From Candidatus Iainarchaeum sp. (GTDB taxonomy: Archaea; B1Sed10-29; WALL01), in assembly GCA_023129115.1 (NCBI GenBank), contig JAGMCR010000002.1:32001-96000 (forward strand): a stretch of 64,000 bases of DNA, given 5' to 3'. A model generated the notes under the pieces. That model worked only from the letters and a program-made list of their open reading frames with translations, made no database searches and was not told the DNA's origin. The translations under genes and the position numbers were made by a program. Shown here one piece after another: positions 3,066 to 60,944 of the stretch. Each line of letters begins with the position of its first letter. Position 1 is the stretch's first letter.

Positions 3066-4181
3066 ATGCTTAATAAGGCGCCCGTGGGTAACAATGGCTT
3101 GATGAAGAGCAACTTCAAGATATTCAACGTCATGGGCATAGACATTGAGCTCCACATATCGTTCATCCTGTTCGTGCTGCTCTTCCTGATTCTTGACGTG
3201 AGCTTCCTCGTGATTTTATTGGTGCTCTTCGCCTCAATCACGCTCCACGAGCTCTCCCACTCCATAATCGGCAAATTGAACGGCATCAACGTCAAGAAAA
3301 TCGTGCTCCTGCCAATCGGCGGCATGGCCGCGATGGACGAGGTGCAAATCAAGCCGTATTCCGAGTTCAAGATGGCGATTGCAGGCCCCCTGTTCAACTT
3401 TTTATTGTGCACCTTGATTGCGCTGGCCACCCAGCTCTTCGGCCTTCCGTTCCTGCTGGGGTGGGCGGACTGGAACGCGGCGGTGGGCGGCGCCATCACT
3501 GTCCCGCTCGCGACCACCCTGTGGTCGAGCACGTTCTGGCTGAACTGGCTGCTGGGCACTTTCAACCTGTTCGTGCCCGCTATTCCCCTGGACGGCGGCC
3601 GCGTCTTCCGCTCCGCACTGGCGATGGTGACGGACTACGTGAACGCGACCAGAATCGCGACCACGGTCTCGACCGTAATCACTTTTTTCCTGTTCATCTA
3701 CGCCTTGTTCACGTACAACATACTCTTGTTGGTCATCTCTATCTTCGTCTACCTTGGCGCGGTCTCGGAATTAGAATACGCCTTGTCCAACAAATTATTG
3801 GCGCACTTCCCACTGAAGCGCATCGTGCGCGCGAACTATTTAGTCCTGAAGCCAGCCACCAAATTGGACAAGGCGATTGAGGAAATGATTAAGTCGCGGT
3901 CGCTGGTGGTGTTCACCACAATCGGCAAGCACATGGAACTGGTGAGCCTCTACGACATCCGGCACGTCCCGAAGTCGAAGTGGAAGAACACGAGCCTAAA
4001 GGAAATCGCGAACAGGGTGCGCGCCGCGGAAGTCACGGACTCGGTGACCGCAGTAATGCACTCAATGATGCGCAACGGGCTCGAGGCAATGCCCGTAATC
4101 AGCGAAGAAGAACTCGCGGGAGTCGTCTTCCGCGACGACATTAACCGAGTTTTCGAGATACTGAAAGTGAGTAATCCTTGA
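3066..4181 (+). CDS. Site-2 (M50) intramembrane metalloprotease with C-terminal CBS pair
   Basis: HELSH zinc motif, AIAGP, NLFVPAIPLDGGR, CBS-like tail (MPVI...LAGVV...DI). True start may be ~3102. Confidence 0.93.
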   Translation: MLNKAPVGNNGLMKSNFKIFNVMGIDIELHISFILFVLLFLILDVSFLVILLVLFASITLHELSHSIIGKLNGINVKKIVLLPIGGMAAMDEVQIKPYSEFKMAIAGPLFNFLLCTLIALATQLFGLPFLLGWADWNAAVGGAITVPLATTLWSSTFWLNWLLGTFNLFVPAIPLDGGRVFRSALAMVTDYVNATRIATTVSTVITFFLFIYALFTYNILLLVISIFVYLGAVSELEYALSNKLLAHFPLKRIVRANYLVLKPATKLDKAIEEMIKSRSLVVFTTIGKHMELVSLYDIRHVPKSKWKNTSLKEIANRVRAAEVTDSVTAVMHSMMRNGLEAMPVISEEELAGVVFRDDINRVFEILKVSNP

Positions 4182-4228
4182 GCAATGAGTCCAAGTGCTT
4201 CTTGATTAATGGCGCGTAGTGCTTTCCC

Positions 4229-4477
4229 TCACTGTCCGTCTTTGTGGTACAAGTCAAGGAAGACTATCGTGTCCTGGCTTTTGAGGCATAGGCAGGACAG
4301 CTTGAAGGGCGCAATGTAAACTTCCCCCGTGTTTTTTCGTGAGAAGCGCATTGGCTTTCCAACACTGGGGTCCCGCACAATCCTGGCGACCTGTTTTTTC
4401 ACCTTTTCTTTCAGGGCGTTGTCCCTTATCTTCTTGGCCCGTTTTTCAAAAACAGAGTCAGACCCAACAGTCACCAT
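4229..4477 (-). CDS. RelE/ParE-family toxin (copy 1)
   Basis: 82-aa basic protein (FEKRAKKI...PSVGKPMR...FLDLYHKD) overlapping the upstream antitoxin. Confidence 0.8.
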   Translation of the reverse strand: MVTVGSDSVFEKRAKKIRDNALKEKVKKQVARIVRDPSVGKPMRFSRKNTGEVYIAPFKLSCLCLKSQDTIVFLDLYHKDGQ

Positions 4478-4740
4478 TTTTCAAGCTCTTTCAAAAACTC
4501 TTCGCCACTCACTTTTTTGAAGCGGCCTTTTTCGTAGCGCTTGAGCGCTTCTTCCGTGCGCTCGGCGAAGCGCAGGTCTTCTCCTATGTTCTCGCCGAAG
4601 TCGCTAACGCTCTTGAGAATGAACTTGTCCCCGCTCCTGATGACGACGAACTTCTCCCCCTCCCTGAAGCCCGCGCGCATGTCGCTGGGGATAACAATCT
4701 GGCCCTTGGAACTCATCTGGGTAACGCTAATATCAGGCAT
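4471..4740 (-). CDS. AbrB/MazE/SpoVT-family antitoxin (copy 1)
   Basis: MSSKGQIVIPSDMR...GEKF swapped-hairpin motif. Confidence 0.88.
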   Translation of the reverse strand: MPDISVTQMSSKGQIVIPSDMRAGFREGEKFVVIRSGDKFILKSVSDFGENIGEDLRFAERTEEALKRYEKGRFKKVSGEEFLKELEKW

Positions 4741-4801
4741 GAGGCAAGATATGTCTTACCTCATATACAAAGTTTTCTTTTCCAAAGAAAAACTGGAGCG
4801 C

Positions 4802-5209
4802 TTATTCTTGCTGTGACGGGTCTTTGAGCTGCTCCAGCACGCTCCGGACTTGCGGCAGTCCCTGCAGATTGTGCAACCTGTCCACGAAATCCTGTTTGAG
4901 TATGCCACCGCCCTCACCAATTAATGTTACCAAGTAATTCAAACAGTACTTAGAACTAGTCTTCAAGAGCTTGTACACTTTATCCTTGTTTTCTGTATAG
5001 TCCTGATCGCCCAGATAGTTTTCCTCGTAATGCTTGCTGCTTGCAGTGGAGATCTCATCCATCAAGTCGCATAGCTCCTGCGCTTCTTTAAGGTCGATAT
5101 GCGTCCTGATTTCCTTGCTGTGGATGTAAACCGGCTTCGTGAATTTCGCGAAATTAGTAATGTCTTTCCTCAGCTGCTCTTCGTTGCCATGTCTTATTTT
5201 GAGACCCAT
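4802..5209 (-). CDS. Hypothetical protein (135 aa) lying between tRNA-Ser-derived repeats
   Basis: ORF fills the interval between repeat copies at 4796-4802 and 5247-5260. Confidence 0.6.
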   Translation of the reverse strand: MGLKIRHGNEEQLRKDITNFAKFTKPVYIHSKEIRTHIDLKEAQELCDLMDEISTASSKHYEENYLGDQDYTENKDKVYKLLKTSSKYCLNYLVTLIGEGGGILKQDFVDRLHNLQGLPQVRSVLEQLKDPSQQE

Positions 5210-5246
5210 ACATGGCTTTAGGGGCTGTGAGAATAAACAAGGATTG

Positions 5247-5260
5247 GAGCGCTAGGGGCA
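5247..5260 (-). repeat. Copy of the tRNA-Ser 3' end core (TGCCCCTAGCGCTC)
   Basis: 14/14 identical to 8152-8165. Confidence 0.9.
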
Positions 5261-5376
5261 AACCAGTATACGGAGTTGACTTTTCGACTTTGAAGTCGAT
5301 TTACCAGCCTATTTCATAAGGGGGCAAGGCAGGGGCGGGTAGCACCAAACAGGCCCATGATTGGTTTTTCGGCCAA

Positions 5377-6066
5377 TTGATTGGTTTTTGGCGTTATAGG
5401 CAACCTTTATATATTATACATGTTATGTATAATGCCATGATTAAGCTGACCGAGAAGAGGCAGGGCATAGTACTGTGGATTCTGGAGAACAGGGGCAAGC
5501 AGTGGTCTATCCACGAGCTTTGCACGAAGTTTGGCGGCCTGACGTACCCGAGCACTTATGACTTTGTCAACCAGCTTTTGGGGGCAGGGTATTTGATGAA
5601 GACCGAGGCCCGGGAGTTCACGGCAATGAATGCCCACGCACTGGTGCAGCAGCTGGCATACACGTTTCCATTAAAGGCCAAGGAGAAAAAGTGCTTCTTT
5701 GTGGTGGGGGGCATGGCAGACAAGATAAAGGTGCTCAAGAGCATCAAATTGGATTATTCGCTTACTGCGTTTGCTGCTGGCGAAGTGCTCCACCCCTATG
5801 TAAAGACAGAAAAAGTCCACGCCTATGCCCGAAAAAAAGACATTGGAAAATGGGGGGAGGAACTGGCCAGGAAAGGGGCCAGGCCTGCTTTTGAGGACGA
5901 GGCGAACCTGTTCCTGCTTCCAGTCCAAGAAGATTACTACTTCAACTTGTCCAGGAACATTCACGGCTTCAGGATAGCGCCGCTGGGCCTCGTTCTGGCT
6001 GACCTGGTTTCGATTGGGGGCCTTGGGGAAGAGCAGGCAAAGATGATTGAAGGGGCAGTGGAATGA
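5377..6066 (+). CDS. Winged-HTH protein, putative type IV TA antitoxin (AbiEi-like)
   Basis: N-terminal wHTH (WSIHELC...TYDFVNQLLGAGYL), YSLTAFAAG and VLADL motifs; coupled to a nucleotidyltransferase. Start probably ~5437. Confidence 0.6.
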   Translation: MIGFWRYRQPLYIIHVMYNAMIKLTEKRQGIVLWILENRGKQWSIHELCTKFGGLTYPSTYDFVNQLLGAGYLMKTEAREFTAMNAHALVQQLAYTFPLKAKEKKCFFVVGGMADKIKVLKSIKLDYSLTAFAAGEVLHPYVKTEKVHAYARKKDIGKWGEELARKGARPAFEDEANLFLLPVQEDYYFNLSRNIHGFRIAPLGLVLADLVSIGGLGEEQAKMIEGAVE

Positions 6067-6776
6067 TCGACGGGATTATGGCGGAGTACTCAAACAAGTG
6101 CCTGGCAGAGCTGTTCAGGCACGTGAAGCAAAAAAGCAGTATTGGCCTCATGGGCGGCTGGGCAGTCCACTACCTCTTGAAAGAAAAGGGGGTTGAGCAC
6201 ATTGGCTCTAGGGACATCGACATTTTCTTTGACCCGGAGAAGGTATCGTTTAAGAAAATCCGGGAACTGATTGAGGGGGAGGGGTTCAGGCCGCACTCGA
6301 CTTTCAGGTGGGCAAAGTTTGTCCACAGGCTTACTGGCAAGGAGATGAATAGTGCAGAGGCAACCAAAGTCCCGCAGTATGACTTGTGTGTTGTTTATGT
6401 TGATGTTGCAGCCCCACGGCACGTCGACAAAAGAGTGATGGACTTGCCTTTGTTGGAAAAAGTGTTTGAAGGGGAATCAAAATGGATTAAAGTGAATGGC
6501 ACCAAAGTCCTGGTCCCAAGCGAGAAAATAATGGCTGAGATGAAGCTGGATTCCACTGGAGAGCGGGGGGACCGGTTCAAGAAGTCCAAGGACATTGCTG
6601 ACCTGTTCATGCTGCTTTACAGCGAGCCCGGGCTGCTGGAGGCCGCCGACAAAAAATTGAGGAGAAAATTCAAGTTGGACTTAGGCGATTTTGGGACTTC
6701 TGGCAATCTAGCTGACGCTGCCAACATGTTGGGGGTGCCAGTAAGCGTAATACTGCGCGTCTTGGACAGGCTTTAG
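6063..6776 (+). CDS. Nucleotidyltransferase-fold protein, putative AbiEii-like toxin
   Basis: MGGWAV, SRDIDIF, MKL and KDIADL motifs; 4-bp overlap with the upstream gene. Confidence 0.72.
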   Translation: MIDGIMAEYSNKCLAELFRHVKQKSSIGLMGGWAVHYLLKEKGVEHIGSRDIDIFFDPEKVSFKKIRELIEGEGFRPHSTFRWAKFVHRLTGKEMNSAEATKVPQYDLCVVYVDVAAPRHVDKRVMDLPLLEKVFEGESKWIKVNGTKVLVPSEKIMAEMKLDSTGERGDRFKKSKDIADLFMLLYSEPGLLEAADKKLRRKFKLDLGDFGTSGNLADAANMLGVPVSVILRVLDRL

Positions 6777-6803
6777 TTGGAACGGCTTGGTCAGCATTTT
6801 CCC

Positions 6804-7052
6804 TCACTGTCCGTCTTTGTGGTACAAGTCAAGGAAGACTATCGTGTCCTGGCTTTTGAGGCATAGGCAGGACAGCCTGAAGGGCGCAATGTAAACTTCT
6901 CTCGTGTTTTTTCGTGAGAAGCGCATTGGCTCCCCGATTGTGGGGTCCCGCACAATCCTGGCGACCTGTTTTTTCACCTTTTCTTTCAGGGCGTTGTCCC
7001 TTATCTTCTTGGCCCGTTTTTTAAAAACAGAGTCAGACCCAACAGTCACCAT
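6804..7052 (-). CDS. RelE/ParE-family toxin (copy 2)
   Basis: Near-identical to 4229-4477. Confidence 0.8.
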   Translation of the reverse strand: MVTVGSDSVFKKRAKKIRDNALKEKVKKQVARIVRDPTIGEPMRFSRKNTREVYIAPFRLSCLCLKSQDTIVFLDLYHKDGQ

Positions 7053-7315
7053 TTTTCAAGCTCTTTCAAAAACTCTCCGCCACTCACTTTTTTGAAGCGG
7101 CCTTTTTCGTAGCGCTTGAGCGCTTCTTCCGTGCGCTCGGCGAAGCGCAGGTCTTCTCCTATGTTCTCGCCGAAGTCGCTAACGCTCTTGAGAATGAACT
7201 TGTCCCCGCTCCTGATGACGACGAACTTCTCCCCCTCCCTGAAGCCCGCGCGCATGTCGCTGGGGATAACAATCTGGCCCTTCGAACTCATTCGGGTAAC
7301 GCTAATATCAGGCAT
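7046..7315 (-). CDS. AbrB/MazE/SpoVT-family antitoxin (copy 2)
   Basis: Near-identical to 4471-4740. Confidence 0.88.
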   Translation of the reverse strand: MPDISVTRMSSKGQIVIPSDMRAGFREGEKFVVIRSGDKFILKSVSDFGENIGEDLRFAERTEEALKRYEKGRFKKVSGGEFLKELEKW

Positions 7316-7365
7316 GAGGCAAGATATGTCTTACCTCGTATACAAAGTTTTCTTTTCCAAAGAAG

Positions 7366-7384
7366 GGGTCGAGCGCTGGAGGCA
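7366..7384 (-). repeat. Copy of the tRNA-Ser 3' end plus flank
   Basis: GGGTCGAGCGCTGGAGGCA vs GGGTCGAGCGCTAGGGGCA at 8147-8165 (17/19). Confidence 0.85.
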
Positions 7385-7416
7385 AGCGTTATTAAAACGG
7401 TTTAGACCGCCGGTTG

Positions 7417-7689
7417 TCAAAAAAATTGGTTGTACCACTTTTCGTAGTCTTTGTGTTTTCCAACGAAGTAGAATCTTACTGTTTTGTTTAGCTCGAATAT
7501 TCTGTAAACAATTCTGTGTTGTCCTGTTTCGTTCACGAAGAATCTGGCTCCTTTTTTGAGGTGCCTTTTGCGCGGGTGTTCAAGAATATTTTTGATTTTC
7601 TTGGCAATCCGTTCTTTTGTTTGATTATCTAGTTTTCGGAAGTATTTCGGCCAGTCTTGATCGAATCTTTCTGTGTACATGACACTCAT
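7417..7689 (-). CDS. RelE/ParE-family toxin
   Basis: FRKLDNQTKERIAKKI...GQHRIVYRI...FVGKHK pattern. Confidence 0.85.
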   Translation of the reverse strand: MSVMYTERFDQDWPKYFRKLDNQTKERIAKKIKNILEHPRKRHLKKGARFFVNETGQHRIVYRIFELNKTVRFYFVGKHKDYEKWYNQFF

Positions 7690-7928
7690 TTCAAGTGTTT
7701 TACATATGGCCCAAGCGCTTCTTCAGCAGTCAATAGTTTTCTTTTTCCTTGTTTTATTTTTTTATCGATTCTATCGAGTTTTCTGGCGACTAGTCCTTCT
7801 TCATTGGCATGGCTTTCCCCGAAATTTATTATAGCTAATCTAATTGCTTCTGACAATGTGTTTGCATAGCCTTCCTCAACCATATCCTCCAAAATTTGCT
7901 TTGTCCTTCCTCTTAAAATAACATTCAT
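7686..7928 (-). CDS. Ribbon-helix-helix (CopG-like) antitoxin
   Basis: MNVILRG...LEDMVEEGYANTLSEAIRLAI; start moved to the ATG at 7928; 4-bp overlap with the toxin. Confidence 0.8.
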   Translation of the reverse strand: MNVILRGRTKQILEDMVEEGYANTLSEAIRLAIINFGESHANEEGLVARKLDRIDKKIKQGKRKLLTAEEALGPYVKHLK

Positions 7929-7958
7929 TACAGGCCACCAACCATTTGATGTGTGTAT

Positions 7959-7995
7959 TATGTATCGTTTATGGTTTAAATATGTATCGTTTATG
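7959..7995 (-). promoter_or_regulatory. TATA box flanked by 15-bp direct repeats; candidate autoregulatory operator of the RHH-RelE operon
   Basis: TATGTATCGTTTATG at 7959-7973 and 7981-7995 around TTTAAA. Confidence 0.55.
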
Positions 7996-8001
7996 AATAA
8001 A

Positions 8002-8014
8002 AGCGCTAGGGGCA
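8002..8014 (-). repeat. Copy of the tRNA-Ser 3' end core
   Basis: AGCGCTAGGGGCA, 13/13 identical to 8153-8165. Confidence 0.88.
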
Positions 8015-8022
8015 GTGTCATA

Positions 8023-8080
8023 ACGCCTGAAACTCAGGCGGCACGTTAGACGAGGGAGGCGCAAGGCCTCCCGGCGGCAT
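8023..8080 (-). repeat. 3' half of the structured non-coding element (family of 52496-52649)
   Basis: Reverse complement matches ~52594-52649, with a compensatory pair change in the GGGNGGC/GCCNCCC stem. Confidence 0.9.
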
Positions 8081-8154
8081 TTTCCATCGACGCTTTTCTA
8101 CCGAGCAGCCGCTGAGCAGGCAAGCGAAGTGGCTGTAACAGAAAAAGGGTCGAG

Positions 8155-8239
8155 CGCTAGGGGCAGGATTTGAACCTGCACGGGCCGAAGCCCACCGGCT
8201 CTCAAGGCCGGCGCGTTAACCGGATTCCGCCACCCTAGC
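8155..8239 (-). tRNA. tRNA-Ser(TGA)
   Basis: Acceptor GCTAGGG/CCCTAGC, anticodon arm CCGGC-CTTGAGA-GCCGG, long variable arm, T arm GCAGG-TTCAAAT-CCTGC, discriminator G; CCA not encoded. Confidence 0.97.
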
Positions 8240-8373
8240 AGCGTCTTGGGGGGAGCGCAGCTCCCCCCGCTACCCTTTCGGGAATCGCAATTCCCTTATT
8301 TCTGGCGATTTCCGAAATAAGGCGATACGAAATCGCCGAAATGGGAAGCACCCCCCCTCAGTAAAACTGTATT
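8240..8373 (+). repeat. 5' half of the structured non-coding element
   Basis: AGCGTCTTGGGGGGAGCGCAGCTCCCCCC...GGGAAG...CCCTCAGTAAAACTGTA, matching the copies at 52496 and 60647. Confidence 0.85.
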
Positions 8374-8383
8374 ACTTAAAAAA

Positions 8384-8458
8384 TGGGCCCGGTCGGATTC
8401 GAACCGACGAGCTTCTCCACGTCAAGGAGACGTCCTAACCAGGCTAGACCACGAGCCC
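8384..8458 (-). tRNA. tRNA-Val(GAC)
   Basis: Cloverleaf with anticodon arm TCTCC-TTGACGT-GGAGA; TTTATAAA box ~25 nt upstream. Confidence 0.97.
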
Positions 8459-8500
8459 ATTGCGTCGTATTTCTATCGTTTCTTTATAAAAGTGTTACAG

Positions 8501-8574
8501 TGGACCTGGCGCGATTCGAACGCGCGACTTCCCCCACGCCAAGGGGGTACTCTTCCGGACTGAGCTACAGGCCC
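8501..8574 (-). tRNA. tRNA-Ala(GGC)
   Basis: Cloverleaf, anticodon GGC, G3:U70 identity pair. Confidence 0.97.
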
Positions 8575-8617
8575 GTGGGTAACTATTTCCATAAATCTCT
8601 TTTTAAATCCGACTGTC

Positions 8618-8860
<243 letters not shown>

Positions 8861-42871: not shown

Positions 42872-42944
42872 GCCTCGGTAGCTCAGCCGGTAGAGCGGCA
42901 GTCTCGTAAACTGCAGGTCGGGGGTTCAATTCCCTCCCGAGGCT
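42872..42944 (+). tRNA. tRNA-Thr(CGT)
   Basis: Acceptor GCCTCGG/CCGAGGC, anticodon arm GCAGT-CTCGTAA-ACTGC, T arm GGGGG-TTCAATT-CCCTC, discriminator U; TTTAAATA upstream. Confidence 0.97.
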
Positions 42945-43060
42945 CTGACCCTACGGTAGTAGAGCCTGCACCATAAAATTGTTGATGATTGCCTATAACG
43001 CTTTCGTTGCAGCCCTAACTCCTTGAATTTCCTAGGAAATCCGCGGAAACTGGAGGACGC

Positions 43061-43279
43061 TTAATAGAATTCTTCTTTTGGCTTTCCAGTCTGCTTGATT
43101 ATGTGCTTTATCACAAAAACAGTTATGGTTGTGTGGTGCGGCACTCACGTTGTCAACACTTTTTTCTTTGACACTTGTTTCTTGTAAGTGATGTGCTTGC
43201 TGGACCTGGCTTTCTTGAGGCCATTGTCCTTGAGTATGCCCTCGACCTTACGCCTTGACAGCTGGCGAAGCCCTGCCAT
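43061..43279 (-). pseudogene. hicA: HicA-family toxin pseudogene
   Basis: Read by hand: MAGLRQLSRRKVEGILKDNG...SSKHITY...VLTT*VPHH...IIKQTG; in-frame TGA at 43145-43147. Confidence 0.75.
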
Positions 43280-43345
43280 GATGGGCAACCTCCGGCAAAG
43301 AAATGGGTATGCTACTCAATGAAACAGAAACCGACATCATTGTTT

Positions 43346-43525
43346 TTAGGGTGTGGGCTTGGGTGTGTCCGGGTCTTTCATATACTCGTTAACCAATTCC
43401 GCCATATTTTCCTTTACCTCTTTCTCGGTTTTTCCTTGTGTGGCCACGTCAAGAACAGGGCAAGAAGCCACAAACCACTTATCCTCTTTAGTAACGATTA
43501 TTGGTAAAGGAATAGCTTGTTTCAC
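43346..43525 (-). pseudogene. hicB: HicB-family antitoxin, probably truncated by frameshift
   Basis: Read by hand: IVTKEDKWFVASCPVLDVATQGKTEKEVKENMAELV; stops at 59 aa while another frame continues to overlap the hicA start. Confidence 0.75.
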
Positions 43526-43596
43526 TGAAAATCACCCTCTGAAATAGGTTATCAAACCCGCGCTATTTAAAAGTATCCGCAAAAAAGAGGTGCTCC

Positions 43597-46359: not shown

Positions 46360-47529
46360 ATGAGGACTGACCCTTACAACACCGGCACGAAGCTAGTGAA
46401 TTGCCTTGAGCGGGTTAGGCAATCGCTTGACCTATGTAAAGCCAACAAGCGGCTGATTCTTGAGTTCCACGCCGAGGCCGTTGCCCGTGGCTTGTCGGAA
46501 AAGCGGTGCCTTAAGTACGTGAGTACTCTCCGCAACCTCGGAACCCAACTTGGAAAGCCCTTTAACAAGGCGGACAAGCACGACATCATTCGCTTGCTCT
46601 CTTGGCTTGAGTCAACCGCGTACAAGGAGTGGACGAAGCACGACTACAAAGTCATTCTGAAATCGTTTTACAAGTGGCTGAACGGTGGAGAAGAGTATCC
46701 AAAGGTTGTTTCGTGGGTAAAAACAGGGATGAAGAACGGCAACCACATGCTGCCCGAGGAATTGCTGACCGAGGAAGACGTGCGTGCTTTAGTTGAAGCG
46801 TGTACGAACCCGCGCGACAAAGCTTTTGTCCTCACGTTGTACGAGAGTGGCTGCCGAATAAGCGAGCTGCTGACGTTGCAGGTAAAGAGCGTGAGGTTTG
46901 ACGAGCACGGCTCAATCTTGCGAGTGACTGGGAAGACCGGTGACAGGCGCGTGAGGGTGATTTCCGCGGCTCCGGCAATCGCGTTGTGGCTCGACAACCA
47001 CCCCACAAGGAAAGGGCACTTGTTTTGCTCCTTGGATGGGACGGGCATCAACTACTCGACCGCTAACGTGCTGTTAAGGAGGCTTGCTAAGAAGGCAGGC
47101 ATTACGAAGCGTGTTAATCCGCACGGTTTCCGCCACGCCCGGGCCACGTCGCTCGCGAACAAGCTCACAGAAGCCCAAATGAAGGAGTTCTTTGGTTGGG
47201 CTCAAAGTAGCGAGATGGCGGCTGTGTACGTCCACTTGTTGGGGCGGGACGTGGACGATGCCCTGCTAAGCATTTACGGCGTGAAGCCACCCGAGGACGC
47301 TCGCAAGGAGCGTTTCGTGCCTAGGGCTTGTCCCAGGTGCAAGGAGACTAATTCTCCTGCTAGTAAATACTGTTGCAGGTGTGGCAGTGCGCTCGACCTC
47401 GCAACAGCGCTAGAGGCTGATGACAAGCACAAGGAAGCCGATGCATTGATGAACGAGCTCATCAAAGACGACAGGATAAAAGCGCTTCTATTGGAGCGGT
47501 TGGTTGCCATCCAAGCAGAGAATCATTAA
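46360..47529 (+). CDS. Tyrosine recombinase/integrase with C-terminal Zn ribbon (SNJ2-like archaeal family)
   Basis: ESGCRISE (R), GKTG (K), HGFRH (HxxR), FGW, VYVH (Y), CPRC...CCRC; catalytic set intact. Confidence 0.95.
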   Translation: MRTDPYNTGTKLVNCLERVRQSLDLCKANKRLILEFHAEAVARGLSEKRCLKYVSTLRNLGTQLGKPFNKADKHDIIRLLSWLESTAYKEWTKHDYKVILKSFYKWLNGGEEYPKVVSWVKTGMKNGNHMLPEELLTEEDVRALVEACTNPRDKAFVLTLYESGCRISELLTLQVKSVRFDEHGSILRVTGKTGDRRVRVISAAPAIALWLDNHPTRKGHLFCSLDGTGINYSTANVLLRRLAKKAGITKRVNPHGFRHARATSLANKLTEAQMKEFFGWAQSSEMAAVYVHLLGRDVDDALLSIYGVKPPEDARKERFVPRACPRCKETNSPASKYCCRCGSALDLATALEADDKHKEADALMNELIKDDRIKALLLERLVAIQAENH

Positions 47530-52495: not shown

Positions 52496-52649
52496 AGCGT
52501 CCTGGGGGGCGCAGCCCCCCACGAAGCCCATGACGTTGACACAAGTCAACGTCCAGTCCACGGGAAGAGTCCCCTCAGTAATACTGTACTAGCTGCTGCC
52601 GGGCGGCCTTGCGCCGCCCTCGTCTAACGTGCCGCCTGAGTTTCAGGCG
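52496..52649 (+). repeat. Structured non-coding element, full copy (ORF-less cassette)
   Basis: Hairpins GGGGGC-GCA-GCCCCC, GACGTTGAC-ACAA-GTCAACGTC, GGGCGGC-CTTGC-GCCGCCC and CGCCTGA-GTT-TCAGGCG, between two cores. Confidence 0.9.
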
Positions 52650-60646: not shown

Positions 60647-60837
60647 AGCGTCCTTAGGGGGAGCGCAGCTCCCCCTGGCCCAGACGAACAACAACCGAAC
60701 ATCCTGTGGGGGATGTCCGGTATCCTGCGGGATGTACGTCATACCCTGGGAAGCCTCACCCCCTCAGTAATCCTGTACTAATCTGTCTCTTGGGGCCTTG
60801 TGCCCCAAAGCCTAACGTGCCAGCTGAGTTTCAGCTG
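60647..60837 (+). repeat. Structured non-coding element, third full copy
   Basis: AGCGTCC...GGGGGAGC-GCA-GCTCCCCC...CCCTCAGTAATCCTGTACTA...TTGGGGC-CTTGT-GCCCCAA...CTAACGTGC CAGCTGA-GTT-TCAGCTG. Confidence 0.88.
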
Positions 60838-60944
60838 AATCCCTCCCGAGGCTCTCATTCTATGGTAGTAGAGCCTGCGCCAAAGTGTCTTGCAAGTTGA
60901 TTAGCAGCAAAAGCCTGACACAATTTTCCGAGCTTGGAACACTT

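Follow-up and report, generated by a model that had tools for sequence, protein, structure and literature searches.

How did a row of small units, whose surviving cargo is mostly toxin-antitoxin (TA) pairs, come to lie between repeated copies of the end of a tRNA gene? The question is raised by a 64,000-nt stretch of DNA from Candidatus Iainarchaeum sp., referred to below as the window (C12:32001-96000 of the source assembly, G000, which comprises 1.25 Mb in 19 contigs and is 88.6% complete). Positions 4182-8153 of the window extend from the 3′ end of tRNA-Ser(TGA), and an earlier interpretation made without database searches (the sequence-only reading) saw there a second array built by the same logic as one at tRNA-Thr, with one trans-acting system serving both tRNAs. 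Here we present evidence that 4182-8153 probably arose by tandem accretion of five small integrative units at an attachment site formed by the 3′ end of tRNA-Ser(TGA), and consider which recombinase may have built it. tRNA genes were called with ARAGORN (38 in the genome), and profile searches were done with Rfam, Pfam and NCBIfam. The comparison genomes are all metagenome-assembled and 84-98% complete, and absence of a gene from any of them means that it was not found in the assembled part.

Copies of the tRNA-Ser tail and the unoccupied site

tRNA-Ser(TGA) occupies 8154-8239 on the minus strand (Rfam tRNA score 62.2 bits over 8155-8239), adjoins tRNA-Val and tRNA-Ala, and provides the attachment core with its 3′ end. 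The core 14-mer, TGCCCCTAGCGCTC, consists of the last 12 nt of the tRNA plus 2 nt of flank. At no more than two mismatches it was found at four sites in the window, all on the minus strand and including the tRNA itself, against a mean of 0.53 in shuffled sequences, none of 100 of which reached four. Three mismatches gave 12 sites against 7.0 expected, the eight added matches being scattered, close to chance in number, and best regarded as noise. Copy 1 (8152-8165) lies within the tRNA; copy 2 (8001-8014, matching at 13 of 14 positions) forms the distal end of unit 1; copy 3 (7365-7384, with the 14-mer at 7371-7384, 12 of 14) continues into GACCCC, as does the flank GACCC(C) behind tRNA-Ser itself; and copy 4 (5247-5260) is perfect over all 14 positions. 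The recurrence claimed by the sequence-only reading is borne out by these copies, the second of them shifted by one position (8001 instead of 8002). The truncated copy that it added at 4796-4802, AGCGCTC (GAGCGCT), is present as a minus-strand remnant at the same offset from a duplicated AbrB-ParE cassette as the copy at 7371-7384, although its 7 nt are not significant by themselves.

A version of the site without most of the array was found in G002, which, like G001, belongs to the same genus as the source genome. There the order runs Lsm, tRNA-Ala, tRNA-Val, tRNA-Ser(TGA), a non-coding unit of ~160 nt, a 17-nt tail copy and the end of the M50 protease gene, whose stop codon is 1 nt away from that distal tail copy. 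In the window this gene (3066-4181, plus strand; PF02163, PF00571, the latter corresponding to CBS domains) forms the chromosomal boundary of the array. Window positions 8243-7998 align to G002 L013:1668-1934, and 4179-3070 to L013:1934-3042 (82%), with no counterpart for 4180-7997; the break falls exactly at the core copy, so that copy 2 is the left edge of the insertion relative to G002 and all four cargo-bearing units behave as one block, cut at a core copy. The difference may reflect either a gain here or a loss in G002 through recombination between cores. In G001, tRNA-Ser(TGA) is followed only by the sequence described below as module 1. The spacing between tRNA-Val and tRNA-Ser(TGA) also differs, being ~785 bp in G002 (C11, L013:884-1672) and 144 bp in the window.

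The cores are direct repeats on the same strand, as are the attL and attR sites of tRNA-targeting integrative elements that use a tyrosine integrase. Such elements carry the integrase inside; none is encoded in 4182-8153, the single PF00589 match lying in the Thr array, and the units are therefore at best non-autonomous members of this class. In the scheme that we favor, each unit would have entered, or would have been retained, by site-specific recombination through a tyrosine integrase, with the segment from the T-loop to the 3′ end of the tRNA serving as the block of identity. According to Williams (writing in 2002), this segment is reportedly the classical position for tRNA-targeting integrases. 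Each integration would have rebuilt the tRNA and left the displaced tail copy at the distal end of the unit, which is the anatomy seen here. The integrase, encoded by no unit, would have been supplied in trans or lost, its likeliest source being a tRNA-Ser-specific member of the XerA-like zinc-ribbon family that is represented in the Thr array and behind tRNA-Ser(GCT) in G001; the surviving cargo, for the most part TA pairs, would have resisted deletion by addiction. Tandem re-use of one att site and loss of the integrase after integration are both described for archaea (PMC6563490, PMC8371274).

Outside the array, 12 nt of the tRNA-Ser tail are repeated exactly, behind a T-loop-like lead-in (TTCAACCAAGCCCCTAGCGCT), at C12:19028-19039 (about -12970 in window coordinates), on the same strand and 21 kb downstream of tRNA-Ser, between an epimerase gene and ComF/DprA-like genes. 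It may represent an old island boundary.

Gene content of the units

Unit 1 (8015-8153, minus strand) contains no open reading frame (ORF) and is described below. Unit 2, on the same strand, is a gene pair in which the toxin, encoded by 7417-7689, belongs to the ParE/RelE superfamily (PF05016, E = 1.4e-8, 35.7 bits against a cut-off of 23; TIGR02385 weak). It is preceded by a small gene (7686-7952, 88 aa) whose stop overlaps the toxin start by 4 nt, the arrangement of a type II TA pair with a putative antitoxin. The product of 7686-7952 matched no Pfam or NCBIfam family even at E≤5; for the ribbon-helix-helix (RHH) protein named in the sequence-only reading, only the overlap and our own view of the sequence speak, and we infer from its position that it acts as the antitoxin.

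Units 3 and 5 contain two copies of one AbrB-ParE cassette, both on the minus strand: copy B (unit 3a, 6798-7365), with an AbrB/MazE-like gene at 7046-7315 and a ParE-like gene at 6804-7052, and copy A (unit 5, 4223-4790), with the corresponding genes at 4471-4740 and 4229-4477. The antitoxins score just under the MazE_antitoxin cut-off of 24.7 (24.6 bits for 7046-7315 and 24.3 bits for 4471-4740), and the two toxins score 22.7 and 25.4 bits against a cut-off of 28. The copies, located within 2.6 kb, align over ~570 nt (4223-4790 with 6798-7365), and the first 300 nt (4223-4522 and 6798-7097) are 96% identical.

The remainder of unit 3 (unit 3b, 5437-6776) lies on the plus strand and encodes a winged helix-turn-helix protein (wHTH; 5437-6066) followed by a nucleotidyltransferase (6063-6776). 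The pair is weakly AbiEi/AbiEii-like, all of its Pfam matches being below cut-off (PF09952, E = 0.0086; PF08843, E = 0.0047; PF14907, E = 0.003): in the test for an AbiEii nucleotidyltransferase and an AbiEi regulator, the scores were 17.3 bits (cut-off 22.5) and 16.9 bits (cut-off 21). Compared by blastp with the unambiguous AbiEi/AbiEii pairs present in G006 and in the Thr array, neither protein matched. Unit 4 consists of an orphan ORF of 135 aa (4802-5209, minus strand) without a family in Pfam or NCBIfam. Apart from the RHH label, the gene list of the sequence-only reading (a ParE pair, two AbrB-ParE pairs, a wHTH-nucleotidyltransferase pair, an orphan ORF and an ORF-less unit) is mostly matched by ORFs and Pfam, and, as it had stated, Pfam finds no integrase domain in 4223-8165.

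The same cassettes in other genomes

The AbrB-ParE pair behaves as a discrete, repeat-bounded cassette in several genomes. Homologues with 71-80% nucleotide identity are present in G003, G006 and G009, where they are bounded by Ser-type cores. When the five copies are aligned, the homologous stretch opens with AGCGCTC, in which a Ser-type core ends, continues through a T-rich hairpin and a promoter-like box, and stops 6-40 nt past the toxin stop codon; in G006 and G009, a Ser-type core comes next. The cassette of G003 is located within a tRNA-Ser(GCT) array, and yet the core preceding it is of the Ser(TGA) type.

In G006, the AbrB-ParE cassette is part of an array that also contains a small TA-like pair and an AbiEi/AbiEii pair, with Ser-type cores between them. 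All three cassettes have homologues of 71-74% nucleotide identity on C12, and the homology fills the core-to-core intervals; one of them corresponds to the AbrB-ParE cassette of the Ser array, with its two copies, and the other two to cassettes of the Thr array (43059-43554 and C12:96955-98257). The head of the G006 array, read by eye, is a probable interrupted tRNA-Ser. This putative tRNA-Ser(GCT), at C2 ~9843-9609 (L029, minus strand), was called by neither ARAGORN nor Rfam; it is interrupted at position 37/38 by ~88 nt and in the T-loop by ~62 nt, the latter possibly representing an intron or an insertion.

A third array in the source genome follows tRNA-Ser(GCT) at C5:9151-13334, with four further cores over 4 kb and genes for an ATPase, a 186-aa protein, a membrane protein and a 320-aa protein. 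At the same tRNA, G002 has a different array, of three units. Its first unit matches the first unit of the G003 array from core to core (77% over 498 nt). Its second unit carries unrelated cargo and has in common with unit 2 of the Ser(TGA) array only a 45-nt distal arm plus core (82%), a match that includes ~30 nt of arm ahead of core copy 3 (7385-7415). A universal distal arm for all Ser cassettes was considered and rejected: cassette ends differ, and only module 2 (see below) and this one 45-nt arm recur.

Farther afield, the AbrB-ParE gene pair has been kept at 45 loci in metagenomes and 25 in genomes, and relatives of the antitoxin occur in records labelled Micrarchaeota (the closest), Woesearchaeota, Nanoarchaeota, Methanosarcinales/ANME and others. 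Of these, 42 metagenome loci and 22 genome loci were analyzed, and flanking repeats of at least 16 nt were seen at 8 and 2 of them, respectively. This minority is tightly flanked by other direct repeats, either the 16-17-nt ATAACTTACGGATTTA or 40-45 nt of a gene end, and several of these loci may represent one population sampled repeatedly.

A recurrent structured repeat, possibly an element arm, behind many tRNA genes

The ORF-less unit 1 folds at -53.2 kcal/mol (z = -2.86), a value equalled by one of 200 shuffled sequences. An Rfam search of 3900-8700 (E≤1) returned three tRNAs and one weak match to a plastid family, far under threshold, and nothing on unit 1. The unit is composed of two modules. 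Module 1 (~8080-8153, minus strand) consists of CCCTTTTTCTGTTAC, a variable hairpin and GGTAGAAAAGCGTCGATGGAAAA (also written GAACGGTGGAAAAGCGTTGATGGAAAA). Its opening 11-mer, CCTTTTTCTGT, is found at 17 sites in the genome, behind tRNAs and between genes, and a related form follows tRNA-Ser in G001 and G003; the module may be a terminator, an insulator or an element arm. The GACCC behind tRNA-Ser, which the sequence-only reading had likened to the flank of tRNA-Thr, turns out to be the start of this 17-copy repeat.

Module 2 (~8023-8084, minus strand) is made of hairpin A, GTCTAACGTGCC and hairpin B, the consensus being hairpin A, (A/T)(A/C)G(C/T)CTAACGTGCC and hairpin B, with the central stretch also given as GYCTAACGTGCC. 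It has no Rfam match. An nhmmer search located 53 copies in the genome, 24 of them within 3 kb of a tRNA; those near tRNAs usually end 2-12 nt ahead of that tRNA's tail copy. Three copies lie in the window (8023-8084, 52590-52649 and 60780-60838), and copies were also matched in G002 and G001. Hairpin A covaries: among 36 near-full-length distinct copies, one pair is AU in 10, GC in 15 and CG in 11, and is thus paired in 36/36.

Tail copies are not confined to the two tRNAs singled out by the sequence-only reading. An exact copy of at least 12 nt of the tRNA's own 3′ end occurs on the same strand, no more than 450 nt downstream, for 11 of the 38 tRNAs (Gly-GCC, Glu-CTC, Leu-TAA, Ser-CGA, Ser-GCT, Arg-TCT, Ser-TGA, Val-TAC, His-GTG, Asn-GTT and Glu-TTC). 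The duplicated lengths are 13-19 nt; most copies begin at the (A)ATC of the T-loop or immediately behind it, and all of them extend to the tRNA 3′ end. The intervening unit ends in module 2 in all but the His tRNA (10/11, printed sequences read by eye). Across the genome, modules 1 and 2 accompany displaced ends of tRNAs and of genes; we interpret them as conserved arms of such elements, and unit 1 as one without cargo.

One explanation for an arm shared so widely would be an integron-like system. The tRNA tails would then be recombination sites at which XerA-like zinc-ribbon integrases, acting in trans, shuffle cassettes across tRNA arrays and genomes; the cassettes, be they TA pairs, single genes or arm-only units, would each carry a tRNA-tail core and a short structured arm, and the 53-copy module 2 would be the arm read by the recombinase, which would account for the same arm being found beside the displaced tails of at least 10 different tRNAs. 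Chromosomal superintegrons are likewise composed of short cassettes, with one trans-acting tyrosine recombinase and with TA cassettes that stabilize the array, and archaeal integrons were reportedly described by Ghaly and co-workers in 2022. The Ser array resembles them in that its cassettes are short, mostly with one function each, and set apart by a recurring recombination site. It differs from them in that no recombinase, intI or attI adjoins tRNA-Ser, leaving it without an integron platform, in that the repeat is a tRNA tail without the conserved attC hairpin boxes (R''/L''/L'/R'), and in that both strands carry genes, which apparently have their own promoters. An attC-like reading of module 2 itself was tried and abandoned: the GTCTAAC...GTTA-T-GAC (R''/R') pairing of unit 1 is, by eye, not kept in other copies. 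We consider an integron-like system unlikely.

The tRNA-Thr array and its integrase

tRNA-Thr(CGT) (42872-42945, plus strand) stands at the head of a larger array. Fifteen further copies of its tail (13-mer, at most two mismatches) are spread over window positions 45539-72097, 12 of them inside the window, and the array extends for ~30 kb, from 42946 to 64000 and on to C12:104097. In G002 the whole block is missing (no copies in 19 kb, with synteny resuming at C12:104923). Among the cargo are genes for an isochorismatase, a subtilase, a PadR regulator with carotenoid genes, an AAA/DUF4143 ATPase, an S9 peptidase and a clear AbiEi/AbiEii pair, and the array also contains three cores of the tRNA-Thr(TGT) type. 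The cores are flanked by inverted arms of the form GGCTCTAYAGCCG, resembling terminal inverted repeats, and the composite motif TTTCCGCGG / TTCCTAGGAAAT occurs eight times (our own count of the printed rows) at unit boundaries. A HicAB label for the pair at 43145-43525 was discarded, its matches (PHD_like, E = 0.001; UPF0150, E = 0.065) being below family thresholds, and it can be called only a small TA-like pair. The 15 tail copies, and the cassettes common to both types of array, uphold the view that the Ser array is a second array of the same logic.

The Thr array also encodes, directly behind its longest (25-nt) tRNA-Thr copy, a tyrosine recombinase (46360-47529, plus strand), which is the sole PF00589 match in the assembly and the only integrase that our search for others in the genome returned. 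Its best NCBIfam match is archaeal XerA (131 bits, equivalog cut-off 220), and it has an extra C-terminal zinc ribbon; on TIGR02249, used as the test for an IntI-type integrase, it scores only 46.8 bits (cut-off 265). Relatives were found in 8 of 31 genomes of the class, with 85% identity in G005, from another genus, and this patchy distribution, together with the high identity across genera, argues for a mobile enzyme rather than a housekeeping Xer. A scan of IMG/VR yielded no relatives, a single-protein query reaching close relatives only. In G001, an intact tRNA-Ser(GCT) is followed after ~35 nt by a homologue that the end of the contig truncates (44% identity over 226 residues), which shows that Ser-associated members of the integrase family exist in the lineage; G001 also contains an integrase-like N-terminus behind tRNA-Thr(CGT). 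Upstream of the latter tRNA, two partial tRNA-Thr 5′-like copies were seen (G001 C5, L014:7738-7972). A tblastn search of the whole source genome with both integrases found nothing further except a 29-residue fragment along the Thr array, and four of the five relatives tested (G002, G003, G006 and G009) have no PF00589 tyrosine recombinase, hence no XerA.

Could the resident integrase serve the tRNA-Thr and tRNA-Ser sites alike in trans, and perhaps tRNA T-arms generally, as the sequence-only reading had supposed for the two tRNAs? It is the only enzyme of its kind in the assembly; G002, which has none, is without the Ser(TGA) cassettes and without the Thr array; module-2 units are found next to core copies of either array; cassettes are common to Ser and Thr arrays across genomes; and tRNA-Ser and tRNA-Thr share the T-loop GGTTCAAWTCC. 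However, the resemblance between the Ser and Thr sites is ordinary: of 666 tRNA pairs, 215 (about a third) equal or exceed its score over the last 14 nt, 77 do so over the 10-nt flank and 74 over the two combined. Neither the Thr boundary motif nor the GGCTCTAYAGCCG arms occur in the Ser array, although the motif does adjoin Ser-type cores in G003 and G009. Moreover, a separate homologue lies behind tRNA-Ser in G001, G002 maintains its three-unit tRNA-Ser(GCT) array without any integrase, and in an assembly that is 88.6% complete a second integrase may be unassembled. Of the single system for both tRNAs, then, the shared logic and cassettes and the joint absences in G002 stand, and the common boundary signals do not; a separate Ser-specific integrase, which would undo that proposal, has a candidate in G001 and none in this assembly. 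We find service by the resident enzyme rather improbable. Given the G001 homologue, the missing Thr-type arms and the unremarkable Ser/Thr similarity, it is more likely that a Ser-specific relative, now absent or unassembled, served the Ser site.

Weighing accretion against duplication and transposition

Accretion by a Ser-specific integrase has to contend with several observations that weigh against it. No integrase, whole or fragmentary, was found in or near the Ser array, and no second one in the assembly; G002, G003 and G006 (84-92% complete) possess Ser arrays without a PF00589 match; and module 2 behind at least 10 different tRNAs is hard to reconcile with one specific integrase per tRNA. 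No core separates the AbrB-ParE pair from the nucleotidyltransferase pair in unit 3, core copies 3 and 5 (the latter being the 7-nt remnant) are degenerate, so that the array need not be active now, and most of the distant AbrB loci show no flanking repeat beyond chance length. That the units are true cassettes is supported by conserved boundaries, by two near-identical copies behind separate cores, by cores foreign to the isoacceptor at which they lie, and by an arm common to unrelated cargo; it is a currently active system that the degenerate cores and the lack of integrase in most relatives speak against.

Degenerate cores would also be left if the array did not consist of mobile units at all, and had formed by local segmental duplication and decay of one larger element, with the cores as leftovers. 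The AbrB-ParE pair is indeed duplicated at ~96% identity within a short distance, and the stretch is contained in three runs of one cold-seep study as contigs in which no joints were seen, although contigs break at repeats and drop rare forms. Against this, the duplicated cassette is not arranged in tandem (A-X-A-X), each copy being placed directly behind its own core; the pair is core-bounded in three other genomes, behind different tRNA-Ser genes; and the block absent from G002 is missing exactly at a core copy. We regard local duplication and decay as very unlikely.

Whether the repeats are att sites or target-site duplications can be judged from units inserted elsewhere. Some module-1 units lie inside the ends of protein genes, between imperfect duplications of 20-35 nt of the gene end. 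At C5:81158 (C5:81124-81260) both copies encode EKDHVLVVCK and all five differences are synonymous, and at C16:17835 (C16:17811-17975) both encode RDWLFK, with two of two differences synonymous; a third duplicated gene end is identical over 25 nt. Differences that are exclusively synonymous would be expected if the element brought the gene end from a diverged host, and not if a staggered cut had duplicated it and the unused copy had then decayed. An element that carries its own version of the target end is a hallmark of integrase att sites, an example being given in PMC6563490. The least probable alternative, and a very remote one, is that the units are transposon-like (casposon-derived or akin to miniature inverted-repeat transposable elements) and the tail copies target-site duplications at tRNA 3′ ends: small units are short, numerous and non-coding, and their 13-19-nt duplications approach the ~14-15 bp given in PMC6563490 for casposons, which likewise target the 3′ ends of tRNAs and other genes and form tandem arrays, but the assembly contains no Cas1 (PF01867, 0 matches; the control was positive in 7 of 14 known genomes), serine recombinase or Y1 transposase, the printed small units showed no terminal inverted repeats by eye, repeat length ranges from 11 to at least 45 nt between hosts, and a fresh target duplication would not predict synonymous differences at 7 of 7 positions.

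Comparison with known systems

She and colleagues reportedly described, in 2001, mobile elements arrayed in tandem at archaeal tRNA genes ("gene capture"). Such arrays, also treated by Krupovic et al. in 2019 (PMC6563490) and Badel et al. in 2021 (PMC8371274), resemble ours in their direct repeats of tRNA 3′ ends, re-use of att sites, frequent loss of the integrase and common TA cargo. In contrast to them, our units are very small (0.14-2.1 kb) and all devoid of integrase, several amount to one TA pair, and these small cassettes reappear between cores in further genomes and at further tRNA genes. A second comparison is with the cis-mobilizable elements (CIMEs) known from site-specific accretion of streptococcal integrative and conjugative elements, which are flanked by att sites, have no recombination genes of their own and are thought to be moved in trans. 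Both kinds of unit are stacked in tandem; CIMEs are bacterial and have an integrase-bearing partner at the same site, whereas no partner is found at the Ser site, and the arrays described here reach five units (Ser) and ~15 units (Thr). The pdif (Xer) modules of Acinetobacter plasmids are also small, often TA pairs, and bounded by sites of a Xer-type recombinase encoded elsewhere. They differ in that their sites are dif-like inverted pairs and ours are direct copies of a tRNA tail, and in that a Xer-type recombinase is missing from four of the five relatives tested.

That elements integrate in tandem at tRNA genes is textbook knowledge; what is unusual in the present case is the fine grain and the reach. 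Recombinase-less units of 140 bp to 2 kb, many of them a single TA pair, recur between tRNA tails behind different tRNA genes and in different genera, and a tyrosine recombinase is altogether absent from most of these genomes. No description of TA cassette arrays bounded by tRNA tails in DPANN-type archaea was found in the literature searched, which left subscription journals mostly uncovered. If the units are moved in trans, they would constitute a cassette-exchange platform comparable to integrons and pdif modules, operating in archaea with reduced genomes and using tRNA genes as docking sites. It would offer a route for the spread of TA and defense genes among co-resident archaea, as suggested by the antitoxin relatives in Woesearchaeota, Nanoarchaeota and ANME/Methanosarcinales records. 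Should the units be decay products and no more, the array would still show addiction modules outliving the elements that brought them.

Two minor features may be added. The assembly contains four TnpB/Cas12f-like ORFs (C13:134192, C3:79611, C3:10561 and C3:102282), found without a Y1 transposase. Just 5′ of tRNA-Ser(TGA), at 8240-8360, there is a GC-rich hairpin repeat (CAGCGTCCTGGGGGGCGCAGCCCCCC and variants), and repeats of the same type occur behind tRNA-Gly(TCC), tRNA-Arg(TCT) and tRNA-Val(TAC) and inside the Thr array.

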